A stretch of DNA of 37,583 nt, taken from positions 1 to 37,583 of the IMG/VR virus record IMGVR_UViG_2651869525_000001, one strand, 5' to 3'. The translations under genes were made by a program, and so were the position numbers. The notes under the pieces are model-generated. The model saw only the letters and a list, made by a program, of their open reading frames with translations. It was not told the origin of the DNA and did not search any database. Positions within the stretch are counted from its first letter, which is position 1. The number at the start of each line of letters is the position of its first letter. Of the stretch, positions 1 through 37,583 are shown piece after piece. Source of the stretch: a virus.

Positions 1-101
1 ACTTTTTTATTATATAAACTATCTTCTAAACTTAATTGTTTATCATCTTTTCTATATAACCACATTTCATTTTCATTTTTATAATATGGTGATTTTTTAA
101 A
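1..101. repeat. Terminal direct repeat, copy 1 (assembly overlap of a circular or terminally redundant genome)
   Basis: Positions 1..101 (acttttttattatataaact...ggtgattttttaaa) are identical to 37483..37583, checked base by base. Confidence 0.95.
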
Positions 102-4879: not shown

Positions 4880-5422
4880 ATGGAAAATAATATAAATAAT
4901 GAAAACATATATAAAGGGTCAGGAATATATGGTTTGATAAATCCATATCAAAATGAACTAATTTATGTAGGTCAAGCAAAAAATATTCATAAAAGATATT
5001 TACAACATTGTAGTATTTCAAATAATATAGGAAATAGTAAGATAAAATCTTTTCTTTATGAAACTATAAAAGATAAAAAACTCCCAAAACTTGTTATTTT
5101 AGAAAAAACTATTAATTTAGATGATAGAGAAATGTATTGGATTAAATATTATAGAAATTTAGGTATAGATTTAGCAAACATGAATGATGGTGGAAAAAGT
5201 ATGATTCATACATCTAGAGCTAAAAAAAATAAACCATGGGGAAATAGTTGGTCACCTCTTCAAAGAATATTTATAAATTATAGAGATGCTATAAAGACTT
5301 TAAAAAAAATAGGTAAAGATACTTCAGAATTAGAGTTAAAATTTTTAAAAATACAAGAATTAATAAATAACTTTGGTCGAGATTATTTTAATGATAAATT
5401 ATATAAAAAATATGGAAAATAA
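4880..5422 (+). CDS. GIY-YIG homing endonuclease (free-standing)
   Basis: The N-terminus GIYGLINPYQNELIYVGQAKNIHKRYLQH, then REMYWIKYYR and NMNDGG, matches the GIY-YIG catalytic domain. Confidence 0.8.
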   Translation: MENNINNENIYKGSGIYGLINPYQNELIYVGQAKNIHKRYLQHCSISNNIGNSKIKSFLYETIKDKKLPKLVILEKTINLDDREMYWIKYYRNLGIDLANMNDGGKSMIHTSRAKKNKPWGNSWSPLQRIFINYRDAIKTLKKIGKDTSELELKFLKIQELINNFGRDYFNDKLYKKYGK

Positions 5423-5858
5423 AATAGGTAGACCTACAATATTTACTAAAGAATTAGGAGATTTAATTTGTAGTAAAATAGCAGAAGGAGAGTCTTTGCG
5501 TTCTATTTGCAGAGAAGAAGAAATGCCTAATAAAGCAACTGTATTTAATTGGCTTAGAACAAATAAAGAATTTCTAGACCAATACGAATTAAGTATGGAA
5601 GAAAGGACTATAGCAATGGGTGAAGAAACTATTGAAATATCTGATGATTCTTTAATTTTAGCTCAAGCATCAGACCCTAAATCAGCAGGAGCTATTGTGC
5701 AAGCACAAAAATTAAGAGTTGATACTCGTAAATGGTTAATGTCTAAAATGAAACCAAAGAAATATGGAGATAAACTTGATGTTATGTCAGACGGAAAAGC
5801 TATACAAGGAAATACTATAATATTTAAAGACTTTAAAGATGAAACAGATAATCAATAG
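5412..5858 (+). CDS. Terminase small subunit
   Basis: MENKIGRPTIFTKELGDLICSKIAEGESLRSICREEEMPNKATVFNWL...RVDTRKWLMSKMKPKKYGDK matches a widespread phage TerS family (recalled). I chose the start at 5412 rather than the track's 5373 to minimise overlap with the GIY-YIG gene. Confidence 0.75.
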   Translation: MENKIGRPTIFTKELGDLICSKIAEGESLRSICREEEMPNKATVFNWLRTNKEFLDQYELSMEERTIAMGEETIEISDDSLILAQASDPKSAGAIVQAQKLRVDTRKWLMSKMKPKKYGDKLDVMSDGKAIQGNTIIFKDFKDETDNQ

Positions 5859-7104
5859 TGCCTATAAAGAATTATTTACCACTGATAAAAGATATGTCTT
5901 TCTTCTTGGTGGTCGTGGAGCTGGAAGAAGTACTGTAGCTTCTCAATATGCTTTAGCTAATTTAATCGGTGATAAATATTCTAGAACTGCAATAATGAGA
6001 TATATACTCGGAGATATTCGTAATTCTATTTATCGTGAAATAAAAGATAGAGCGTCAGAGTCAGAAATACTAGATAACATTCAAGTCAATGATAGTCTTA
6101 TGTCTTTATCTTATGGAGCAAATACTATTAATGCTGTAGGATTTAAAAAAAGTAGTGGTGATCAAAAAGCTAAATTAAAATCTCTTGCTAACTATAACTG
6201 TATAATCATAGAAGAAGCAGATGAAATAAGTGAAGAAGATTTTATACAACTTGATGACTCAATAAGAACAGTAAAAGGAGATATTAAGATTATCTTTTTA
6301 CTTAATCCACCGTCAAAATCTCACTGGATAATTAAAAGATTTTTCAATCTATTACCGTCAGAAGCTAAAGACTTTTATATACCAGAGCTTAAGCCAAACA
6401 TGAATGCAACATTCATAAGAACTTCATATAAAGATAATATTAAAAATATTGATGAAGAAACTGTTTTAAGGTATGAGGGATATAAAACAAATAAGCCGGA
6501 CCACTATTACAATATGATAGCTGGACTTATACCAGAAGTAGTAAGAGGAAAAATATTTAGTGGCTGGAATATGATTGATGATGTGCCTTTTAACGCAGAA
6601 CTTATAGGATATGGACTAGACTTTGGATTTACAAATGACCCAGCGTCTATAATAGCAGTATATCGTTATGACGGGGGATATATAGCAGATGAGGTATGTT
6701 ATCAGACAGGACTTTCTAATAAAAAACTTGCTGATTTACTTTCTAATTTACCTAAAGCTGTGGTTGTAGCAGATAGTGCTGAACCTAAGAGTATTGAAGA
6801 AATAAAAACTTATGGAATAACAATAATACCTTGTGAAAAAGGAGCAGACAGTATTAGAAATGGTATTCAACTTATGCAAGGAGTAAAAATATCTGTAACT
6901 AAAAGAAGTCAAAATTTAATAAGAGAATATGAAAATTATAAATGGTGGACTGATAAGAATGGTGAAACTTTAAATGAGGCAGACCCAAGATGTGAAAATC
7001 ATGCAATAGACGCATTACGATATAGACTTGTCGCTTCTCTTAAGACTGCTAACTATAAACCACAACAACTTCAAGCTGAACTTCATCAAGGAAGGTGGAG
7101 ATAG
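5839..7104 (+). CDS. Terminase large subunit (PBSX/XtmB-like)
   Basis: Walker A GGRGAGRST, Walker B IIIEEADE and a C-terminal nuclease region with VVADSAEPK and HAIDALRY. Overlaps the end of TerS. Confidence 0.9.
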   Translation: MKQIINSAYKELFTTDKRYVFLLGGRGAGRSTVASQYALANLIGDKYSRTAIMRYILGDIRNSIYREIKDRASESEILDNIQVNDSLMSLSYGANTINAVGFKKSSGDQKAKLKSLANYNCIIIEEADEISEEDFIQLDDSIRTVKGDIKIIFLLNPPSKSHWIIKRFFNLLPSEAKDFYIPELKPNMNATFIRTSYKDNIKNIDEETVLRYEGYKTNKPDHYYNMIAGLIPEVVRGKIFSGWNMIDDVPFNAELIGYGLDFGFTNDPASIIAVYRYDGGYIADEVCYQTGLSNKKLADLLSNLPKAVVVADSAEPKSIEEIKTYGITIIPCEKGADSIRNGIQLMQGVKISVTKRSQNLIREYENYKWWTDKNGETLNEADPRCENHAIDALRYRLVASLKTANYKPQQLQAELHQGRWR

Positions 7105-7146: not shown

Positions 7147-7569
7147 ATGTCAAAAGTAGTAAAACCTTTAAAACCAAGTAAAGCACAAAAAGAACACTGG
7201 AAAAAATTAGAAAAATTAAATCCATTTATTAAAAGAATTGAAGAAGAATGTAAACCAGAGCAAGCTATTAATTATATTCGTTTAATTGAAATGCTATCTA
7301 ATGAAATAATGCACTCATCAATAGGAGAAGCTAAGAAACTAAATATAAGTACAATACCAGTAAAAGAAACTAAAGCTGGAGATGATATAAACTATATTAA
7401 ACAACAAAAAGCTTTTGAAATATTAAAAGAAAGTGAAATGTCAGTCGGTAATATTTTAGAAGTATTAGAATATTATTCAAAGATACTTAATAACTTTACT
7501 AACGCTAAGCTTTATAAAGAATTAACATACAAAGAAATATTGCCTAAAAATGCAATCAACTTAGATTAA
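7147..7569 (+). CDS. Hypothetical protein (140 aa)
   Basis: ORF downstream of TerL; no motif recognised. Confidence 0.6.
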   Translation: MSKVVKPLKPSKAQKEHWKKLEKLNPFIKRIEEECKPEQAINYIRLIEMLSNEIMHSSIGEAKKLNISTIPVKETKAGDDINYIKQQKAFEILKESEMSVGNILEVLEYYSKILNNFTNAKLYKELTYKEILPKNAINLD

Positions 7570-9558: not shown

Positions 9559-10533
9559 ATGAACCCACAAAATGGTCCTATAATGACAACCTTTGATCAA
9601 AAGAACGCCTATGCTATAGAGCTAAATGATCGTTGGTATCAAATGTACGAAGTAAATAGAGCTCCTTCACAAGCTCATTACGACAATGAAGATATTTTCA
9701 AAACAAAGAAACTAAATACTGCTTATTACAATACAGCAGATTTTGGAGGAATTGGATTTTTGGAACAAGTTGGAGAAACAGGTAATCCATCACAAGATAA
9801 AGCTATACTTGGTAAAACAAGAAGTGTAAGAGTAGCTCAATTTTCTGTAGATGTAAAAATCTCATCACTTGCTCTTAGAACAAATCAACATTCAGAATGG
9901 GAGAAGACAATGCAATCAGCAGCACGTGCAGCATTCATGACACGTGATAGAACAGCTTTCTCACTATTTAACAATGGTGTACCAGGATTTGCAGGAGCTA
10001 ATCCTACACTTACAAATGCAGGTGAATTATGGTTTAGTACTTCTCACTCACTATTAAAAGGTGGAACTACATCAAATGCACTTCCATCAGGTACTCTAGT
10101 TAATGACGCTGGACTTTCAGCATTATTCTCTATTGCAGCAAACTTAGTTGACCAAGCAGGTATGCCTTTCATGGACGCACCAGAAATTCTTTTAACTCCT
10201 ACTGGTTCAGCTTATTGGAATGCTATCAAATATACTGACGCTAAGTTAGTTGCTGGTACAAACTTAAATGACCCTAACCCATTGAATGTATCTTATTCAG
10301 GACTTAAGGTTATGCAAAATGTATTCTTAGGAGCTAATTATGGTGGTTCTGATACTGCTTGTTTTGGTATCTCAAGAATAAATACTGCTACTCGTCTTGT
10401 AGAGCAAGAAATGTATACAAAACTATACGAGCCTACAGCAGAAAACCCTATGTATTGGAGTTTCCATGTAGAATATACAGAGCAATACTTTGTAGAATCA
10501 TACGAAGGAGCTTACTTTATCCCTGGAGTATAA
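9559..10533 (+). CDS. Major capsid protein (probable HK97 fold)
   Basis: 324-aa ORF after the scaffold and decoration-like genes, followed by a strong GC hairpin. Called from size, position and composition only. Confidence 0.6.
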   Translation: MNPQNGPIMTTFDQKNAYAIELNDRWYQMYEVNRAPSQAHYDNEDIFKTKKLNTAYYNTADFGGIGFLEQVGETGNPSQDKAILGKTRSVRVAQFSVDVKISSLALRTNQHSEWEKTMQSAARAAFMTRDRTAFSLFNNGVPGFAGANPTLTNAGELWFSTSHSLLKGGTTSNALPSGTLVNDAGLSALFSIAANLVDQAGMPFMDAPEILLTPTGSAYWNAIKYTDAKLVAGTNLNDPNPLNVSYSGLKVMQNVFLGANYGGSDTACFGISRINTATRLVEQEMYTKLYEPTAENPMYWSFHVEYTEQYFVESYEGAYFIPGV

Positions 10534-21960: not shown

Positions 21961-24072
21961 ATGGTAGATATAATAAAAAAAGATATTAATAATCAAATAA
22001 AAACTCCAATTACTAGTAACTGGTTTGGATTTAATAATGTAAACCCTTCTACAGTAAAAAATAATCTTACTACTCCAATCATTACACCTAATAATTCATT
22101 TCAAAAAAATGCTACAAATACAGGTATTGCTAATAATCTAACTTTTAATGATAGTAACATTGATAAAAATAAAGCTTTAAATGTTAATACTGATGCAAAT
22201 ACTAATTCAAATCCTAATACTGGTACTTCTTCTCCTTATACTTCTTCATCATCTGATGAAGCTACAAAAAATAATAATCCAGGTAATCTTAAAGATCCAG
22301 TAACTGGTAAATTTAGACAGTTTTCTACTCCACAAGAAGGTGTAAACGCTCAAATACATCAATTAGATTTATATAAAACAGGACAATCAAAGACTGGTAT
22401 TAATGGAAACTCTACTCTAGCTCAAATGATAGGTGTATATGCTCCTTCAAGTGATGGAAATAATCCAAATGCTTATGCTGAAAATGTAGCTAAACAATTA
22501 GGTATTAATATTAATACTCCTTTATCACAAATTGATACAACACAATTAGCTAAAGCTATGACATCAATAGAAAGTCCAGCAATGTATAAAACACTTTACG
22601 GACAATCTGATAGTACAGGTGCTAATACTGGTACTAATATGGGAAATACTGATACTGGTGTTACTACTGGTGCTACTCAAACATCAACAGAGCCAGCAGG
22701 TACAACTATAAAAAATACTGACGGAAGTATAGGAGTAGTACAAAATGACGGTACAGTTATAAATTATGCTTCTGATTCACCACAAGCTCAACTTAATAAC
22801 TTAGATACTTATCATCAACAAATAACTCAACAAATAGCTGATATACAAAGTGGTAATTTTAAACTTGACCCTATATCTCAAGACCAAATAAATACTTTAC
22901 AGACTACTTTAGGTACTACTTTAAATAGTATTAATCAATCAATCTATTCATCAAAAAATGCAACAGAAGAATTAGCAGCAAGAACTGGTGCTGCTATGAC
23001 TGGACCAGCTGAAATGATAGGCACACTTCAAAACATAACTCAAAATGGTATCAATGAAATAAACACTTTAAATAATACTATTAATAGTAAAATCACAGCT
23101 ATTAAATACGCAGCTCAACAAGGACAAATATCTACTTTACAGGAAAACTTCAAAGATTATCAAGACGCAGTGTTAAAAAGAATTGATACAGTGGAAAAAC
23201 TCAATAATGATGTGTTTGACCATCAACAGAAGATACAAGACTATAATATAAAAAAAGAAACTTTACAGCAAAAAATTGCAGATGATAAAATAAAAAATTC
23301 TATAGCTTATTCAAGATTAGCTATAGCACAACAACAAGCAGCTAGTGGTATTGATGCAACACAATTAACACCAGACGCAGTTAATTTATTAGCTACAAAT
23401 TATGCTATAACTGGTAATTTACCTAGTTTTGGTATGGGTAAACAAGGAGCAACTTTAAAAACTGCTATTTTAAATAAAGCTGCTACTTTAGGTAACTCAC
23501 AAGATATAATTAATGCACAACAAACATTTAAAACAAATTCACAAGCGTTAACAAAACTAACTACTTCATCAACAAAATTAGATAGTATAAATACTACAAT
23601 AAAAAATACTTTACCAACTTTAGCTACTTTAGCTGATAAAGTAAATATGCCTCTTTTACCAAACTTTGCAGAAAAAGCTTACATAGAAGCACAAGCATCT
23701 GCTGGTAATTCAGATGCAAGTAATTATTTATTAGCACTCAATACTATTCAAGCTCAACTATCAGGAGCAGATGCTGCTGAAGTAGGAAGCACAACAGGAG
23801 GACAAATGTATATCCAAAGAGCACAAGATGCTTTATCTGGTGGAATGACTGGAGAACAATATAGAGATTTAGTAAAAACTTTTGATGATATAGCTTCTCA
23901 ATCACATAAATCAATGCAAGATGAGATTACTAAAATTAAATCTCAACAAGGAGCATTTATGTACTCTACAGACGGGACTCCTAATACAGACCCGTTAGGA
24001 ATTGGTAATGATACTTATGTAGATAATAATTCTACTACAGATACTAGTGACCCGTTAGGAATAATGAACTAA
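21961..24072 (+). CDS. Internal virion / ejection-like protein with an NNPGNLK domain
   Basis: NNPGNLKDPVTGKFRQFSTPQEGVNAQIHQLDLY...IGVYAPSSDGNNPNAYAENVAKQLGI resembles a conserved phage virion-protein domain (recalled), followed by a long Gln/Thr-rich helical region. Confidence 0.45.
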   Translation: MVDIIKKDINNQIKTPITSNWFGFNNVNPSTVKNNLTTPIITPNNSFQKNATNTGIANNLTFNDSNIDKNKALNVNTDANTNSNPNTGTSSPYTSSSSDEATKNNNPGNLKDPVTGKFRQFSTPQEGVNAQIHQLDLYKTGQSKTGINGNSTLAQMIGVYAPSSDGNNPNAYAENVAKQLGININTPLSQIDTTQLAKAMTSIESPAMYKTLYGQSDSTGANTGTNMGNTDTGVTTGATQTSTEPAGTTIKNTDGSIGVVQNDGTVINYASDSPQAQLNNLDTYHQQITQQIADIQSGNFKLDPISQDQINTLQTTLGTTLNSINQSIYSSKNATEELAARTGAAMTGPAEMIGTLQNITQNGINEINTLNNTINSKITAIKYAAQQGQISTLQENFKDYQDAVLKRIDTVEKLNNDVFDHQQKIQDYNIKKETLQQKIADDKIKNSIAYSRLAIAQQQAASGIDATQLTPDAVNLLATNYAITGNLPSFGMGKQGATLKTAILNKAATLGNSQDIINAQQTFKTNSQALTKLTTSSTKLDSINTTIKNTLPTLATLADKVNMPLLPNFAEKAYIEAQASAGNSDASNYLLALNTIQAQLSGADAAEVGSTTGGQMYIQRAQDALSGGMTGEQYRDLVKTFDDIASQSHKSMQDEITKIKSQQGAFMYSTDGTPNTDPLGIGNDTYVDNNSTTDTSDPLGIMN

Positions 24073-24090
24073 AAATAAATAATTAAATAT

Positions 24091-25920
24091 ATGAACTTAA
24101 CACCACAAACAAATCCAATAACATCAGGAAATCCACAAACAGGAGTTTCTTCTAATCCTTCAGTTGCTAATTCATCAACACAAACTCAAAATGTATCAAA
24201 TCAAGCTCCTTTATCTGTAGATGATTTTGCTAATAAAATAAAACAAAAGTTTCCTCAATATATAAAAATGGATAATAAGACATTAACTGATAAAATGATT
24301 GCAAAATATCCAGCTTATAAAAATCAAGTTAATTTAAACCCTCAAAACAATTCAGTCGATAACACTCAAAATACACCAGATAAAAGTGCTTTAGGAGAAA
24401 TATTTGATTTTGGTAAAAATGTAGTAGGAGATATTGTAAAAGGAGTAGAGAGTCCAGGAAAGACAGCAGAAGCTTTTTCTTCTGCACTTGGTAACTATCT
24501 TAGTAATCATTCTAAGTACAGTGAAGCTGGTATGTCTTTTCATGATGTATATCAGAATTTTATAGAGCAAGCTAATAAAGAAAATACTTTATCAGGCACT
24601 ATCTCACCAGAAAATAAAGCAGAAGCAAGAGATATAACTACAGCTAAAGGTATAGAACAGACAGCTGGAGATATTGGCTCATCATTATTAAATATAGCTA
24701 CAGGTGGAGAAGGTGGAGCTTTAGGAAAAACTGCTCTTAAAGAGGGAGGAGAAGTACTTGTAAAAGACTTAGCAAAAACAGGATTTAAAAAAGCTATTGG
24801 AACTGGAGTAAAATATGGTGCTGGATATGGTGCATCTAGTGAAGCACAAAAAGGAGCTGGACTAGGTGATTTATTACTAGGAACTGGAGAAGGAGCTATA
24901 ATGGGTGGAGTATTAGGTGGAGTTGGAGAATTTGCATCTAAACAAATATCTTCTAGATTAAATAAAGAGGCTCAAGATTTAGCTTCTAATGTTGAGGGTA
25001 AATCTGTCAAAAAGACTGCTCCTATAAGCACAGCTATAATGGATAGAGTAGCGAGAGTGAACCCAACTGATGCTATTGAATTTAAAAAGATGACTGGAGA
25101 ATCTATAGGAGAATATCTAACAAAAACTGGTAATTTTAATGCTCCTGATAAAATAGTAACTAATGAAGCTGAGAAATTTACAAAAGCATTAAATATGAAA
25201 GATGAAGCTATAGCAAATCTTCCAGGCACATATAAAAATGGAGCAGTAGATGACGCATTAACTGGACTTATAGACAAAGCAAAATCAACATCTGGACAAA
25301 ATGTTAAATCTCCATATTTAGATAAGGTCTTATCATTAGAGAAGAAAGCTAAAACAGATGGTTTGTCAATGAAAGAAATAAGTGATGTTATAAGACTACA
25401 CGAAAGAGAAATTAAGCTTGGATACAGTAAAATGTTAAATACAGAAAAGGTAGATTTGGCAACTAATATAGATAAAGAATTAAGAGAATTTCAAGATAAA
25501 ACAGCTAAACAGTTAGGATTAGAAAATCTACCAGAATTAAATAAACAAATCCAAACTTCTAAATTATTAGTTGATAGTCTTGGTAAAAAACTAGTTACAA
25601 ATGAGCTATTAAATGGTATTAGTTTAACTGACTGGATAATGTTGTCTGGTGGAGAGCCTACATCAGTAGCAGGATTACTTACTAAGAAACTGTTTGCAAA
25701 TAAAACAGTGCAAGTAAGAATAGCTAGAGCAGCTAGAGCTTTGAGTAATGCAAAGACTGTGCCTGAATTAAAGGCTATTATAGGAGAAACCAAATTCCCT
25801 AGATTAGAAGCAGGAAAAACAACTATTCCAACACAAGATTTACCTATATATCTTACTGGAAAAGGTAAAACTCAATCTCAAGCAGATGAGAATTTACAAA
25901 AACTTATAAAAAATAAATAA
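24091..25920 (+). CDS. Internal virion / ejection-like protein (609 aa)
   Basis: Gly-rich, amphipathic and hydrophobic central segments (GGEGGALGKT...GAIMGGVLGGVGEF). Positioned after the portal and the previous large protein. Confidence 0.4.
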   Translation: MNLTPQTNPITSGNPQTGVSSNPSVANSSTQTQNVSNQAPLSVDDFANKIKQKFPQYIKMDNKTLTDKMIAKYPAYKNQVNLNPQNNSVDNTQNTPDKSALGEIFDFGKNVVGDIVKGVESPGKTAEAFSSALGNYLSNHSKYSEAGMSFHDVYQNFIEQANKENTLSGTISPENKAEARDITTAKGIEQTAGDIGSSLLNIATGGEGGALGKTALKEGGEVLVKDLAKTGFKKAIGTGVKYGAGYGASSEAQKGAGLGDLLLGTGEGAIMGGVLGGVGEFASKQISSRLNKEAQDLASNVEGKSVKKTAPISTAIMDRVARVNPTDAIEFKKMTGESIGEYLTKTGNFNAPDKIVTNEAEKFTKALNMKDEAIANLPGTYKNGAVDDALTGLIDKAKSTSGQNVKSPYLDKVLSLEKKAKTDGLSMKEISDVIRLHEREIKLGYSKMLNTEKVDLATNIDKELREFQDKTAKQLGLENLPELNKQIQTSKLLVDSLGKKLVTNELLNGISLTDWIMLSGGEPTSVAGLLTKKLFANKTVQVRIARAARALSNAKTVPELKAIIGETKFPRLEAGKTTIPTQDLPIYLTGKGKTQSQADENLQKLIKNK

Positions 25921-26039
25921 ATTATTCGTACCAAGATAACCAAGCAATAATTCCTAAAAACATTATTATAAATAGCATATAAACAAATAATATCACCACA
26001 AAATTAAAAGTCAAATAGTTATCCCAATAAATAAAATTT

Positions 26040-27548
26040 ATGACAAACACAATACAATCAAATAAAACAGAAAAAAAGAAAATAGTCTTATTCACTTTTG
26101 GAGGAGAAGGACTATCTATATGTGAAAAGTTAGCCAATGAAGGACACGAAGTCTATATAGGAATGGTAGATAATAATAAAGATATTCTTTTACCAGAAGA
26201 GAAATGGAAAAAAGAAGATGAAAACGACAAAGAAAAAAGATTCAAAAACTTTGACGGTATTGTAAAAAAAGAAGACGCTGTGGTGCTTTATAAATGGCTT
26301 ATAAAACAAAATCCAGAAGACTTTTTTGTATGGAGTGATTTAAATCAATGTTTTAAATATACAGAAAGACTATACAAGAAAGGTTTTACTGGACTTTTAG
26401 CGACTGAAGAAGATAGAAAAATGGAAGTCGATAGAGACTTAGCTAAGAAATTTGTAGAAGAAAACTATCCTAGTCTAAAAGTGGGTGATCATCATGAATT
26501 TACAGATATAGAAGAAGCTATAACATTCTTAGAAGAAGATGAAGAGAATTGCTGGGTATTAAAACCAAAAGGAGGAGAAGCTAAAGTTATAGCTAGAGAA
26601 GATGATGTTGAGATGAACCATAATGAAATCATTGAAGCTCTTAAAACTTATAAAAATGATTACGAAAGTAGTGGATTTATCCTTGAAAAGAAGATAATGA
26701 ATGTTTGTGAAATAACTCCGGAAATAGTCTTTTGGAATGGAGAGCCTTTATTTACTACAGTAGATATAGAAACTAAATATACTTATGGAGGAAATAGAGG
26801 AAGTCAATGTGGTTGCTCTTCTAATCTTATTGTAGAAACTAATATAAATGATAAAATCAATCAATTAGCATTTCCACCTATTATATGGGAAAAAGCAAAG
26901 GAAATTAGGGGTCTATCTATTTTTGACGCTTCACTTTATTTAGATGAAGACGGTGAACTTTATTTTGGAGAATATTGTGCTATGCGTGAAGGCTGGACTT
27001 CTTTATGGACTAAAATTTCAATGTCAGAAGGAGCTTCTAACTATTTTACTAAGATAATGAATGGAGAAAATCCTTTAAAAAATAAATATGGTGTAGCTGT
27101 TGCTTTATTTAATGATGAGGAAAAGGTAGATGAGTATATACAATATAAACCTTTTATTGAAGATGAAGTATGGCTTTATGACTGTTATAAAAAAGATGAT
27201 AAATTGTATACTACTGGAACTGGTAGAGATTTAGGAGCTATCACAGCAAGTAGTGATGACTTATTAGACTCTATTGAAGCTTTATATGAGAATGTAAATG
27301 ACTTTTCACAAAAGTTTACTTGTCGTACTAAAGAAGATTTCCTAGCTGATAGTTATTATTCTGCTCTTATATACAGATTAAATAAAGGTATAGAGCATAA
27401 ACTATTTAAAGGTGATTATATTTCAAATTATCAATTAGAAGAAAGTGAAAGAAATATAATGCAAGATGAAATGGGAGATGATGAAGATATGGAGAATGAT
27501 GTTGAACACCCTATATCAGAAGAAATGTCTATTGATAATATGATATAA
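26040..27548 (+). CDS. PurD-like ATP-grasp ligase
   Basis: KKIVLFTFGGEGLSICEKLANEG resembles the PurD N-terminal GSGGREHALAWKLA. Also present are CWVLKPKGGEAKVIA, GFILEKKIMNVCEITPE, and GELYFGEYCAMREGW (compare EFNCRFGDPE). Acidic C-terminal tail. Confidence 0.6.
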   Translation: MTNTIQSNKTEKKKIVLFTFGGEGLSICEKLANEGHEVYIGMVDNNKDILLPEEKWKKEDENDKEKRFKNFDGIVKKEDAVVLYKWLIKQNPEDFFVWSDLNQCFKYTERLYKKGFTGLLATEEDRKMEVDRDLAKKFVEENYPSLKVGDHHEFTDIEEAITFLEEDEENCWVLKPKGGEAKVIAREDDVEMNHNEIIEALKTYKNDYESSGFILEKKIMNVCEITPEIVFWNGEPLFTTVDIETKYTYGGNRGSQCGCSSNLIVETNINDKINQLAFPPIIWEKAKEIRGLSIFDASLYLDEDGELYFGEYCAMREGWTSLWTKISMSEGASNYFTKIMNGENPLKNKYGVAVALFNDEEKVDEYIQYKPFIEDEVWLYDCYKKDDKLYTTGTGRDLGAITASSDDLLDSIEALYENVNDFSQKFTCRTKEDFLADSYYSALIYRLNKGIEHKLFKGDYISNYQLEESERNIMQDEMGDDEDMENDVEHPISEEMSIDNMI

Positions 27549-27583
27549 TATAAGAATTAATAAAAAATAAACACAATAAAATT

Positions 27584-27964
27584 ATGCTAGACACATATAA
27601 AATAAATTTTACAAATGTAGTTAGAAATGATGATGGTACATATAACTTTGATGAAGCTGAAACTTCTTTAGATAATTCTTTTGAAGATGTAGTTACTCAA
27701 TCTTGTACTAATGTTGATTTAGGTGATGACGCTTTAGCTGGACTTTTAGAAAGATGTTCATCAAATGTAGAAGTACATGTTAACGCTGTATTCTTTGGAA
27801 GAGGAAGAGCTGGAGTAACAGAAACTACTTCTGAAGAAACTGTATCAGAAAATCCTTCTGAACCAGTATCAGAAACTGTAGAAACTCCTATAGAAACTCC
27901 TGTAGAAACTCCTATAGAAAATACTGTAGAGGATACTACAACTCAAACTGAAGTATCTGCTTAA
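27584..27964 (+). CDS. Hyper-acidic protein with a C-terminal Thr/Glu/Pro repeat
   Basis: By my count about 27 Asp+Glu against 5 Lys+Arg in 126 aa. The C-terminus reads SETVETPIETPVETPIENTVEDTTTQTEVSA. Confidence 0.65.
   Translation: MLDTYKINFTNVVRNDDGTYNFDEAETSLDNSFEDVVTQSCTNVDLGDDALAGLLERCSSNVEVHVNAVFFGRGRAGVTETTSEETVSENPSEPVSETVETPIETPVETPIENTVEDTTTQTEVSA
27872..27940 (+). repeat. 12-nt in-frame tandem repeat GAAACTCCTRTA (ETP-I/V)
   Basis: Units at 27881, 27893 and 27905, with degenerate units on both flanks. Confidence 0.75.
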
Positions 27965-27982
27965 TTAAAATTAGTTAAGAGT

Positions 27983-28012
27983 AAAATATCCTTATTTATT
28001 AAGGGTATTTTT
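27983..28012 (+). terminator. Intrinsic terminator candidate at the end of the late operon
   Basis: 12-bp stem (27983..27994 with 28000..28011, one G-U pair), 5-nt loop, and a U-run at 28008..28012. Confidence 0.5.
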
Positions 28013-28073
28013 ACTATACACTTAAGTTAAGTCTTAATATGTGGAAAACAAATTGTGTTTTAAAATATATAAA

Positions 28074-28082: not shown

Positions 28083-28282
28083 ATAAGAGTTACAAGTTTC
28101 GTCATTTGTAACAAAAAGTAAACTTAAATATTTTTTCATAATTAATTTTAAGCACATAACCTATTTGGGTTTTGTGTGAATGGTAGATTAACCCATGATT
28201 TACCATTCACAGAGTATCTAAATACTCAGAATAAATTGCATACTAATTGAGTATTAGTAGCTGATAGGTAAGCTATCCTAAA
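28083..28282 (+). promoter_or_regulatory. Long structured 5' leader (candidate cis-regulatory RNA)
   Basis: Five hairpins. (1) 28089..28095 with 28106..28112, 7 bp. (2) 28175..28185 with 28201..28211, 11 bp perfect. (3) 28212..28217 with 28222..28227. (4) 28240..28244 with 28250..28254. (5) 28263..28267 with 28273..28277, ending 5 nt before the ATG. The GAGTAT and ATACTC segments allow alternative pairings. Confidence 0.45.
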
Positions 28283-28801
28283 ATGAAAGTTTTAAAACAA
28301 AATAAACTGCTGATAATATTGCTAATCACTGGGATTATCATATTAGGGATATTGTTTCCAGTTTTACATACAGAGTCTAAAGAAGTAGTTATATCTAATC
28401 CAGTAACTATAACTAAAGACTTGCGAGCAGAAAAAATAGATAAGTATTTTAAAGATAGAAATGAAAAACTCGCTGGATATGGAAATAAATTTGTAGAAAT
28501 GGCTGATAAATATAATTTGCCTTATAATTTCCTACCTGCTATTTCTGTAAGAGAAACTACAGGGGGAAATGTAATGTGTACTAACCCTAAAGCAAAAAAT
28601 AATCCTTTTGGTTATGGCTCTTGTCGTATAGGTTTTAATTCTATAAATGAAGCTATAGAAACAGTAAGTTATAAGTTATCAAATCTTCCAGTATATAAAG
28701 GAAAAACAATTCAAAAGAAATTGTACTATTATAATGGGACTGTAATCCCCTCATATCCACAAGAAGTATTAAAGATAATGAAAGATATAGATAACAAATA
28801 A
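28283..28801 (+). CDS. Membrane-anchored peptidoglycan hydrolase (GH73 / transglycosylase-like)
   Basis: N-terminal signal anchor LLIILLITGIIILGILFPV. AISVRETTGGN...KNNPFGYGS resembles the catalytic Glu and NxFG motifs of glucosaminidase / SLT families (recalled). Confidence 0.45.
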   Translation: MKVLKQNKLLIILLITGIIILGILFPVLHTESKEVVISNPVTITKDLRAEKIDKYFKDRNEKLAGYGNKFVEMADKYNLPYNFLPAISVRETTGGNVMCTNPKAKNNPFGYGSCRIGFNSINEAIETVSYKLSNLPVYKGKTIQKKLYYYNGTVIPSYPQEVLKIMKDIDNK

Positions 28802-37303: not shown

Positions 37304-37583
37304 AAGTTAAATAATCTTTTAAATAATTTTCATCTGATAAAATTTCTTCTGTTATTAAAATACCCTTTCTAAATTTCTTATATCCATAAATTCTTTCGTA
37401 TTCATTTCTTCCACTTTTAAAATCTTTTATCATAGACTTTTTTGTTTTATATTCTTTACCATTAAAAAGATATCCAATAATAACTTTTTTATTATATAAA
37501 CTATCTTCTAAACTTAATTGTTTATCATCTTTTCTATATAACCACATTTCATTTTCATTTTTATAATATGGTGATTTTTTAAA
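37296..37583 (-). CDS. 3' part of the wrap-around hypothetical gene (5' end at 167..1)
   Basis: Track ORF 37296..37547, with the frame open to the window end. See feature 1..167 for the likely true start. Confidence 0.65.
   Translation of the reverse strand, partial: FKKSPYYKNENEMWLYRKDDKQLSLEDSLYNKKVIIGYLFNGKEYKTKKSMIKDFKSGRNEYERIYGYKKFRKGILITEEILSDENYLKDYLTYA
37483..37583. repeat. Terminal direct repeat, copy 2
   Basis: Identical to positions 1..101. Confidence 0.95.

Follow-up and report, generated by a model that had tools for sequence, protein, structure and literature searches.

A PurD-fold ATP-grasp ligase in phage virion modules, outside purine synthesis, and its hyper-acidic orphan neighbour

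We have analysed IMG/VR record IMGVR_UViG_2651869525_000001, positions 1-37,583 (hereafter the window), which is a phage of ca 37.5 kb, and we focus on two adjacent genes in it, one for a 502-amino-acid (502-aa) ATP-grasp ligase and one, 35 nucleotides (nt) downstream, for a 126-aa protein of extreme acidity. We will argue that the ligase is, on balance, probably an active late carboxylate-amine ligase that has the fold of PurD, the glycinamide ribonucleotide (GAR) synthetase, and a changed, non-purine substrate, and that the acidic protein is an orphan rather than a conserved partner. The ligase belongs to a previously unnamed and unannotated family of PurD-fold ATP-grasp enzymes with a different substrate, a new-fold partner protein and a conserved place in virion modules. 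A first-pass annotation of this DNA had instead paired the two proteins as enzyme and plausible substrate. The features concerned are the following.

26040-27548, + strand: PurD-fold ATP-grasp ligase, 502 aa (open reading frame (ORF); family profile, AlphaFold2 and Foldseek).
27402-27545, + strand: acidic C-terminal tail of the ligase, residues 455-502 (low confidence, beyond the conserved core).
27584-27964, + strand: orphan hyper-acidic protein, 126 aa, with a Thr/Glu/Pro/Val-rich C-terminal third (ORF).
27876-27930, + strand: in-frame 12-nt tandem repeat encoding ETP(I/V) units (Tandem Repeats Finder).

Both reading frames are present exactly where the first-pass annotation had placed them. 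As a single sequence, the ligase gives nothing significant in Pfam, PHROGs or the PDB, and searches of Pfam, PHROGs, NCBIfam and PADLOC return sub-threshold PurD matches only, with no defence-system family. A profile was therefore built from 15 homologues and searched against the PDB with E values up to 10. It matches nine PurD structures (E = 2e-10 to 4e-3) and nothing else significantly, and in the best of these matches (E = 2.3e-10) ligase positions 102-430 are aligned with PurD residues 91-422. The motifs that had been quoted for the ligase are real, and the profile aligns WVLKPKGG to the PurD lysine strand and EYCAMREGW to EFNCRFGDPE.

An AlphaFold2 model of the ligase, built on the homologue alignment, has a predicted local distance difference test score (pLDDT) of 84.5 and a predicted template modelling score of 0.84, and it displays the four-domain N-B-A-C architecture of PurD. 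When the model is compared with the PDB by Foldseek, the top 14 matches are all PurD, with E values down to 1.9e-17. The alignments extend over ca 450-465 columns, which means that all four PurD domains are covered. After PurD, biotin carboxylases, PurK, PurT and the amino-acid ligase RizA are ranked among the 50 matches listed. The top matches are thus only ATP-grasp enzymes, and four hallmark residues of that superfamily, K175, E224, D296 and E311, are present and 92-100% conserved. A fold search of BFVD gave only remote, generic ATP-grasp proteins. The earlier description as a PurD-like ATP-grasp ligase, which had come with the suggestion of a Foldseek comparison, is supported by both the sequence profile and the predicted fold.

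Conservation was measured over 100 family representatives, and the catalytic residues were mapped to PurD through the family-profile alignment together with the residues of that enzyme for which binding of ATP and of the glycine carboxylate has been reported (PMC8880213). The correspondences are as follows.

E129 and R132: equivalent to E100 and K103 of PurD.
K175: equivalent to K143 of PurD.
E224: equivalent to the hinge Glu of PurD.
E244 and K246: equivalent to D212 and K214 of PurD.
E311 and R316: equivalent to the E and the R of the PurD EFNxR motif.

The ATP-grasp catalytic set, consisting of E129, R132, K175, E224, E244, K246, D296, E311 and R316, is 92-100% conserved. All of these belong to the family-invariant residues that are present in the ligase of the window, along with C313, R429, D433 and R446. 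The latter four are features of the family's own, since Cys313 stands in place of the usual Asn metal ligand, and R429, D433 and R446 form a C-terminal motif.

The substrate site of PurD, on the other hand, has not been kept. For the human enzyme, Arg13/Glu14 of the GGREHA motif, the GLAAGK B-loop, Asp295 and Arg385 of the GGRVL motif have been proposed to be involved in phosphoribosylamine binding or active-site closure (PMC2978367). Column counts over the 100 family members reveal no conserved Arg/Glu in the N-loop, the correspondence of which to PurD was set by position in the fold, and no GLAAGK. The position of Asp295 is occupied by Tyr or Trp and that of Arg385 by Trp or a variable residue, both positions being placed by a reading of the motif spacing. 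The curated models are missed by a wide distance, with 22.4 bits on TIGR00877 (purD) against a cut-off of 288 and 12.5 bits on PF01071 against a cut-off of 27; homologues score 18-19 bits on GARS_A or GARS_C, and the identity of the ligase to PurD is only ca 15%. No other purine gene is found among the scanned ORFs of the complete genome, as had been stated earlier, and pur genes are absent next to the cellular homologues, whose neighbours are housekeeping or unrelated genes. Judged by its sequence, the ligase is not a purine-pathway enzyme, given the unconserved phosphoribosylamine-site residues, the scores far below cut-offs and the missing pur context, and the doubt about a purine role in the first-pass annotation was well founded.

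We now turn to the distribution of the family. An HMMER scan of 1.84 billion representative proteins, clustered at 50% identity, yields 821 members when the limit is E<1e-3, and at least 161 clusters remain at E<1e-30. Pfam and PHROGs contain no family that matches it significantly, and a tblastn search with the ligase against 50,697 GenBank phage records gives no match. The public names of the homologues are 'hypothetical', with the exception of one (P0013) that is called 'phosphoribosylamine-glycine ligase'. Literature searches on PurD or ATP-grasp proteins in phages, on ATP-grasp enzymes with aspartate racemases, and on amidoligases found nothing resembling it. The earlier remark that no phage system of this form has been described thus holds for the annotation libraries, the GenBank phage collection and the literature searched; what we see is an enzyme family of considerable size that annotation effectively misses.

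Gene neighbourhoods were recovered for 26 phage loci and for 59 loci from bacterial genome assemblies. In a neighbour-joining tree, a compact cellular clade stands apart from several deep phage clades, and the ligase of the window falls in one of the latter, together with those of L014, L019, L011, L009 and L022. The cellular clade includes Levyibacteriota and other Patescibacteria, Udaeobacter and other Verrucomicrobiota, Coxiellaceae-like Gammaproteobacteria, Anaerolineales and Fimbriimonas, and some of its ligase genes are located on contigs of 1.1-1.7 Mb amid housekeeping genes such as those for RNase HII and UppS. In five of the 150 listed homologues (P0042, P0074, P0103, P0108 and P0144), a LAGLIDADG intein interrupts the E-F-C motif, precisely between F312 and C313, such that the conserved Cys is the +1 extein residue. 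The presence of inteins in the active site indicates that the gene matters to phages.

The position of the ligase in phage genomes is highly regular. In almost all of the 26 phage loci, the ligase or its cassette comes directly after a virion-block protein of 467-1829 aa on the same strand, often with overlapping stop and start codons, and is followed by tail-fibre-like or lysis genes. The giant upstream proteins of L008 and L010 contain the LPD38 domain, and the equivalent protein of L078 contains an SLT (lytic transglycosylase) domain. LPD38 has been reported from no proteins other than polyvalent ones of the phage type, for which packaging and injection have been predicted (PMC5512222). In the window, this slot is occupied by a 609-aa protein.

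24091-25920, + strand: 609-aa virion-module protein, directly upstream of the ligase (ORF; synteny over the 26 phage loci).

By synteny, its place is that of the giant proteins in the relatives. It has no significant Pfam or PHROG match itself, and neither LPD38 nor SLT was detected by Pfam in this protein or in the 703-aa protein that precedes it. Since the ligase is transcribed with the virion genes and lies directly behind large virion-module proteins, it would act late in infection or be delivered with them.

Further hints about the reaction come from genes that recur beside the ligase elsewhere in the family. In one large phage clade, the ligase is part of a fixed cassette with a protein of the Asp/Glu-racemase superfamily and a partner protein of ca 140 aa. 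The racemase matches PF01177 with E values up to 3e-34, its best members exceed the cut-off of the NCBIfam model TIGR00035 (asp_race), and both catalytic Cys motifs are intact. It adjoins the ligase in 10 phage or prophage loci, ca 8 of them distinct. In L021, the ligase is also neighboured by an S51 peptidase (PepE/cyanophycinase family, which includes Asp-dipeptidases).

The partner protein, of 140-170 aa, is found in 28 of the 86 sources, both phage and cellular (e.g. L012 4939-5373 and L055 7442-7930), and adjoins the ligase in 16 cellular loci. Its residues H48, E49, E52, D67, D70, H100 and E107 are invariant, in the pattern H-E-x-x-E, D-x-x-D, H, E. It belongs to no Pfam, NCBIfam or PADLOC family, and although its AlphaFold2 model is of high quality (pLDDT 96), the model has no fold match in the PDB at E<0.001 and gives no functional lead. 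It is a putative metal-binding protein with a new predicted fold. In the loci of Verrucomicrobiota type (L030, L032, L035 and 13 more), the place of the partner protein is taken by a constant Amidohydro_2 (PF04909) neighbour, usually on the opposite strand.

On this basis, the following mechanism can be proposed. The family would have split from GAR synthetase and changed its substrates. As in the standard ATP-grasp mechanism, ATP would bind between the B and A domains, and a carboxylate would be activated by conversion to an acyl-phosphate, which the conserved residues Arg316, Glu244 and Lys246 would hold. Attack of an amine on the acyl-phosphate would then give an amide. The substrates would be other than phosphoribosylamine and glycine. 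A small molecule is most likely, since the PurD/PurK/PurT/RizA-type fold and the housekeeping context of the cellular clade favour it, and it is possibly an acidic amino acid or a related compound of aspartate, because chemistry of aspartate or D-aspartate is suggested by the Asp-type racemase and the S51 peptidase that neighbour the ligase in sister clades. A virion-associated or protein-directed role would still be compatible with the fixed place behind giant proteins, with the inteins and with the C-terminal tails, which are variable.

It is important to point out that several observations weigh against this interpretation. The racemase, the partner protein and the S51 peptidase are absent from the genome in the window (for the first two, and for a mini-domain of ca 115 aa described below, in a six-frame search), and the aspartate link is hence an extrapolation from sister clades. 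The replacement of the usual ATP-grasp Asn metal ligand by Cys313 throughout the family means that the chemistry may be unusual. Moreover, several residues close to the active site differ between the ligase of the window and the family consensus, with the changes N315M, D/N320T and E325K. Many homologues carry C-terminal coiled-coil-like tails or extensions of 250-300 aa, and the long extensions in some of them could mean that the enzyme is a physical part of the virion. Finally, an acidic tail at the C-terminus is seen again in ligases of neighbouring clades (L002, L008 and L010), which, together with the acidic orphan, gives room for a protein tail as substrate. The ligase of the window does have such a tail, as the first-pass annotation had noted, with 16 Asp/Glu in the last 48 residues and 17 Asp/Glu against 3 Lys/Arg in the last 51; residues 480-502 have a pLDDT below 50.

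Next, we consider the 126-aa protein. Its 27 Asp/Glu against 5 Lys/Arg, counted correctly in the first-pass annotation, make it the most acidic of the 42 ORFs, with a net charge of -22, or -0.175 per residue compared to a mean of -0.005 and a standard deviation of 0.056. An open frame of 127 codons is expected by chance only ca 0.03 times at this base composition, and the start is preceded by an A-rich stretch, as is the case for all other genes of the genome. The in-frame repeat is likewise genuine (period 12, 4.6 copies, 86% matches, score 82). An identical gene is present in contigs from four samples and is therefore a stable gene of this phage lineage. Among 5.8 billion proteins it matches only itself, there is no match in the PDB or, by tblastn, in the 50,697 phage records, and Pfam, PHROGs, NCBIfam and PADLOC give nothing meaningful.

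In the relatives, the gene that follows the ligase varies. Over the 26 phage loci it is strongly acidic in only two, L010 and L016, which are unrelated in sequence, and in L016 it is the conserved partner protein that has an acidic tail. The closest phage relatives, L005 and L006, have a lysin straight after the ligase. At this place, L001 has a 41-aa Lys/Ala-rich ORF (9974-10099) with 17 Lys/Arg and no Asp/Glu, and L010 has a 41-aa ORF (7371-7496) that overlaps the stop codon of the ligase and contains 18 Asp/Glu and one Lys/Arg. Together with the lysins of L005 and L006, these two small ORFs indicate that what lies between the ligase and the lysis genes is a place for small charged ORFs that vary among the relatives, and not for a conserved partner. 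The L010 ORF resembles the tail of the 502-aa ligase, including a common 'PISE', in what is a short, low-complexity sequence. Taken with the recurring acidic tails of L002, L008 and the 502-aa ligase, this resemblance is suggestive, at the level of sequence, of a link between the ligase and acidic peptides. Our reading of the 126-aa gene is that it would be a lineage-specific orphan, inserted between the ligase and the lysis gene on the same late transcript.

With this material at hand, the alternatives can be weighed. The first-pass annotation had regarded the acidic protein as a substrate of the ligase or as the precursor of a peptide that is ribosomally synthesized and modified post-translationally (RiPP). 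According to this proposal, the ligase would introduce graspetide-like ester or lactam cross-links, or add Glu or Asp in the manner of RimK, and the product would be either a virion or ejected protein in modified form or a RiPP of the phage. The proposal draws on the distance of 35 nt between the genes, on a common late transcript that ends at a hairpin directly after the small gene, on the regular Thr/Glu-rich repeat, and on the acidic tails of related ligases with the overlapping 41-aa ORF of L010. However, the small protein has no homologue, the vast majority of related phage loci, the closest among them, have no acidic neighbour, and the recurrent partners are different proteins; because of this, the pairing is unsupported, and we give it a slim chance. 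In addition, the relatives listed (PurD, biotin carboxylase, PurK, PurT and RizA) are enzymes of small substrates, with no RimK or MdnB/C among them, and graspetide precursors are not known to come near a length of 126 aa, and no leader motif is identifiable. A related proposal is that the ligase is the first protein-modifying member of the PurD/PurK/PurT branch, produced late or delivered with the virion, which extends acidic tails with Asp/Glu or cross-links them, the target being its own tail, the orphan or an ejected virion protein, and with D-Asp supplied by the racemase in the relatives that have one. This we consider quite improbable as well; if it were true, the earlier pairing of ligase and acidic protein would be essentially right, in an unexpected enzyme clade. 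It is less difficult to imagine that the ligase is a virion-associated or ejected effector that acts on some other protein, with the large virion protein encoded upstream, a protein of the host at an early stage of infection and the acidic tail of the ligase itself as candidates. The fixed place straight after giant virion-module proteins, the LPD38 domains in two of these, the C-terminal tails and extensions of many homologues, and the inteins, which imply that the gene is important to the phage, all fit such a role. The well-conserved bacterial-chromosome clade among housekeeping genes, on the other hand, speaks for a reaction of general metabolism over one specific to the virion, the neighbouring racemase, peptidase and putative metalloprotein suggest that small molecules are handled, and the C-terminal extensions have no detectable similarity to neighbouring structural proteins, so that we hold this option to be unlikely.

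The acidic protein could also act on its own, as a DNA mimic of the Ocr/ArdA type or another anti-defence decoy, encoded by a moron gene at the end of the late operon. This scenario is compatible with a non-purine carboxylate-amine ligase next to it, and we view it as possible, if rather doubtful. It agrees with the extreme charge, with the location of an orphan at a module boundary where relatives hold variable small charged ORFs, and with the stable maintenance seen in four samples. The acidic composition would suit a DNA mimic, but known DNA mimics, PDB entries and phage records yield no sequence match, expression from the late operon would come at the wrong time for a protein that counters restriction, unless it were packaged, and the C-terminal third looks disordered, in contrast to a rigid DNA-like array of charges. 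As to the purine pathway, the ligase could be a true, highly divergent PurD, i.e. an auxiliary metabolic gene that boosts purine synthesis. PurD is indeed the best match in both sequence profile and fold, one homologue bears its name in public data, and the residues that bind ATP and the glycine carboxylate are kept. These arguments are outweighed by the missed cut-offs, by the loss of Arg13/Glu14, the GLAAGK loop, Asp295 and Arg385, by the missing purine genes in the complete genome and beside the cellular homologues, and by family partners, racemase and new-fold protein, that have no role in purine synthesis. A bona fide PurD was accordingly rejected and has, in our estimate, next to no likelihood. 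Automatic 'phosphoribosylamine-glycine ligase' labels on these phage genes should not be taken as signs of purine auxiliary metabolic genes.

It is instructive to compare the ligase with established systems. With PurD (PDB 2QK4, 5VEV, 2YW2 and 1GSO) it shares the four N-B-A-C domains and the residues for ATP, metal and the carboxylate/acyl-phosphate, and it differs in its ca 15% identity and sub-cut-off scores, in the Cys for Asn, in the extra R429/D433/R446 motif, in the lack of a purine context and in its neighbours. MdnB/MdnC and RimK likewise activate carboxylates through an ATP-grasp fold, and here too a Thr/Glu-rich protein adjoins the ligase. They belong, however, to another ATP-grasp clade, and the candidate precursor would be an unconserved 126-aa orphan; none of them appears in the PDB profile search at E values up to 10, which returns PurD and noise, or among the 50 Foldseek matches listed. 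RizA (PDB 4WD3), a three-domain ATP-grasp enzyme that joins amino acids, is matched significantly by Foldseek (rank 19, E = 7e-14), in keeping with an amino acid as substrate, although the match is weaker than those to PurD and there is no detectable sequence similarity.

For the cassette with the racemase, a parallel is offered by Enterococcus faecium, in which the D-aspartate ligase Aslfm and the aspartate racemase Racfm reportedly add D-Asp to the peptidoglycan precursor, as Bellais et al. are said to have described in 2006. Sister phage clades similarly encode an ATP-grasp ligase beside an Asp-type two-Cys racemase, which by analogy suggests ligation of D-Asp to an amine. The likeness is one of gene pairing, the pair is absent from the genome in the window, the phage genes are located in a virion module, and the hosts include Gram-negative bacteria, as shown by a Paraburkholderia prophage. 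Gram-negative bacteria are not known to use D-Asp cross-bridges. The modules of polyvalent, ejected proteins are similar in that the ligase cassette stands directly behind giant virion-module proteins, two of which have LPD38, and dissimilar in that the ligase is a separate gene and not a domain, and in that the upstream proteins in the window have no LPD38 (Iyer et al. 2017, PMC5512222). The domain list of that work does not include ATP-grasp amidoligases, and its only mentions of ATP-grasp concern RNA ligases. The Aslfm/Racfm system is mentioned in a review (PMC4155827).

The family thus has a fixed virion-block position in many uncultivated phages and an active site that is important enough to attract inteins. 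If the formation of an amide that contains a D-amino acid, or the modification of a protein, turned out to be true, this would be a new kind of late or ejected phage function, which might affect the cell envelope or a packaged cofactor, or might serve counter-defence. The bacterial two-gene module of Levyibacteriota/Patescibacteria, Udaeobacter/Verrucomicrobiota, Coxiellaceae-like Gammaproteobacteria and Anaerolineales would then gain a function as well. The family is experimentally tractable, while the genome in the window holds only the stand-alone ligase and the orphan gene. The full cassette is present in L078, a prophage of the cultured strain Paraburkholderia silviterrae 4M-K11 (NZ_SMRP01000001.1, 63370-76719), in the form of an 831-aa SLT-domain protein, the racemase, the ligase and the partner protein, and it therefore provides a cultivable system for testing the family.

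The genomic surroundings of the two genes were also analysed. The first and last 101 bp of the window (1-101 and 37483-37583) form an exact direct terminal repeat, from which it follows that the phage genome is complete and was assembled as a circle. Its GC content is ca 28%. None of the genes has a Shine-Dalgarno motif; the starts are preceded by an A-rich 'ataaaa(t)tt' stretch instead (e.g. 26015-26039 and 27559-27583). The same phage is present in four metagenome samples, and the cellular homologues of its ligase are common in Levyibacteriota and other Patescibacteria. A long block on the + strand runs from the large terminase over a probable capsid gene and several proteins of 600-700 aa to the ligase and the acidic gene, and the replication and recombination genes (DnaB-like helicase, ERF) are on the opposite strand. 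The elements that delimit this block are given below.

5839-7104, + strand: large terminase, start of the long + strand block.
27980-28015, + strand: terminator-like hairpin and U-run, directly 3' of the acidic gene (inverted repeat I4, 92% complementary).
28283-28801, + strand: probable lysin beyond the terminator (N-terminal hydrophobic segment and weak glucosaminidase match).

The fold of the 61-nt stretch 27960-28020 has an energy of -18 kcal/mol (z = -4.5), and none of 200 shuffles was as good. A simple terminator scan passed over the hairpin, the stem of which is AT-rich. The AT-rich hairpin and the U-run directly after the acidic gene indicate that the ligase and the acidic gene close the late transcript, the end of which is probably marked by this hairpin. 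The two genes had been described earlier as the end of the virion operon. This is correct as regards the hairpin, but not in the sense that no gene follows, since the lysin gene lies beyond it on the same strand. The assignment of this lysin relies on a match to PF01832 with E = 2.7e-4, which is under the curated cut-off. A lysis gene after the ligase is also seen in relatives, encoding a GH19 protein in L001 and an amidase-like protein in L005 and L006, as judged from reading the sequence.

A few further observations can be mentioned. Some ligases in different lineages have an extra domain of ca 115 aa with the pattern DxDG(T/V)...(I/V)TG...K...ED at the N- or C-terminus (L001 8001-8345, L007, L011 and L019, and the C-termini of P0023 and P0066). 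From its motifs, it was suspected to be a HAD phosphatase, but this was not confirmed, as a profile search of the PDB gave nothing relevant and the HAD Pfam model matched only one of 13 members (E = 0.004). The same applies to a second extension with HAD motifs (P0057 and P0076), in that the P0057 extension has no PDB match and no detectable kinship to the ca 115-aa domain. The idea that the long C-terminal extensions of P0049, P0060 and P0068 are of tail-fibre nature was also dropped, since BLAST, phmmer and jackhmmer revealed no similarity to neighbouring proteins.

Elsewhere in the window, the ORF a short way upstream of the large terminase (4880-5422, + strand) has matches to PHROGs of homing endonucleases, among them a GIY-YIG one, with E values down to 3e-7. 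The 703-aa protein at 21961-24072 (+ strand) matches a segment of a 'tape measure' PHROG over its first ca 220 residues (E = 1.5e-18), and its coiled-coil middle gives a weak match to the PADLOC model LmuB (E = 3e-7), which is probably a coiled-coil similarity only. Rfam and tRNA scans of the whole genome were empty. In the gap of 318 nt between the acidic gene and the lysin gene there is a long, near-perfect hairpin (28162-28224), without a match in Rfam, that has a folding energy of -29.7 kcal/mol (z = -7.8), with none of 200 shuffles as stable, and that may regulate the expression of the lysin.

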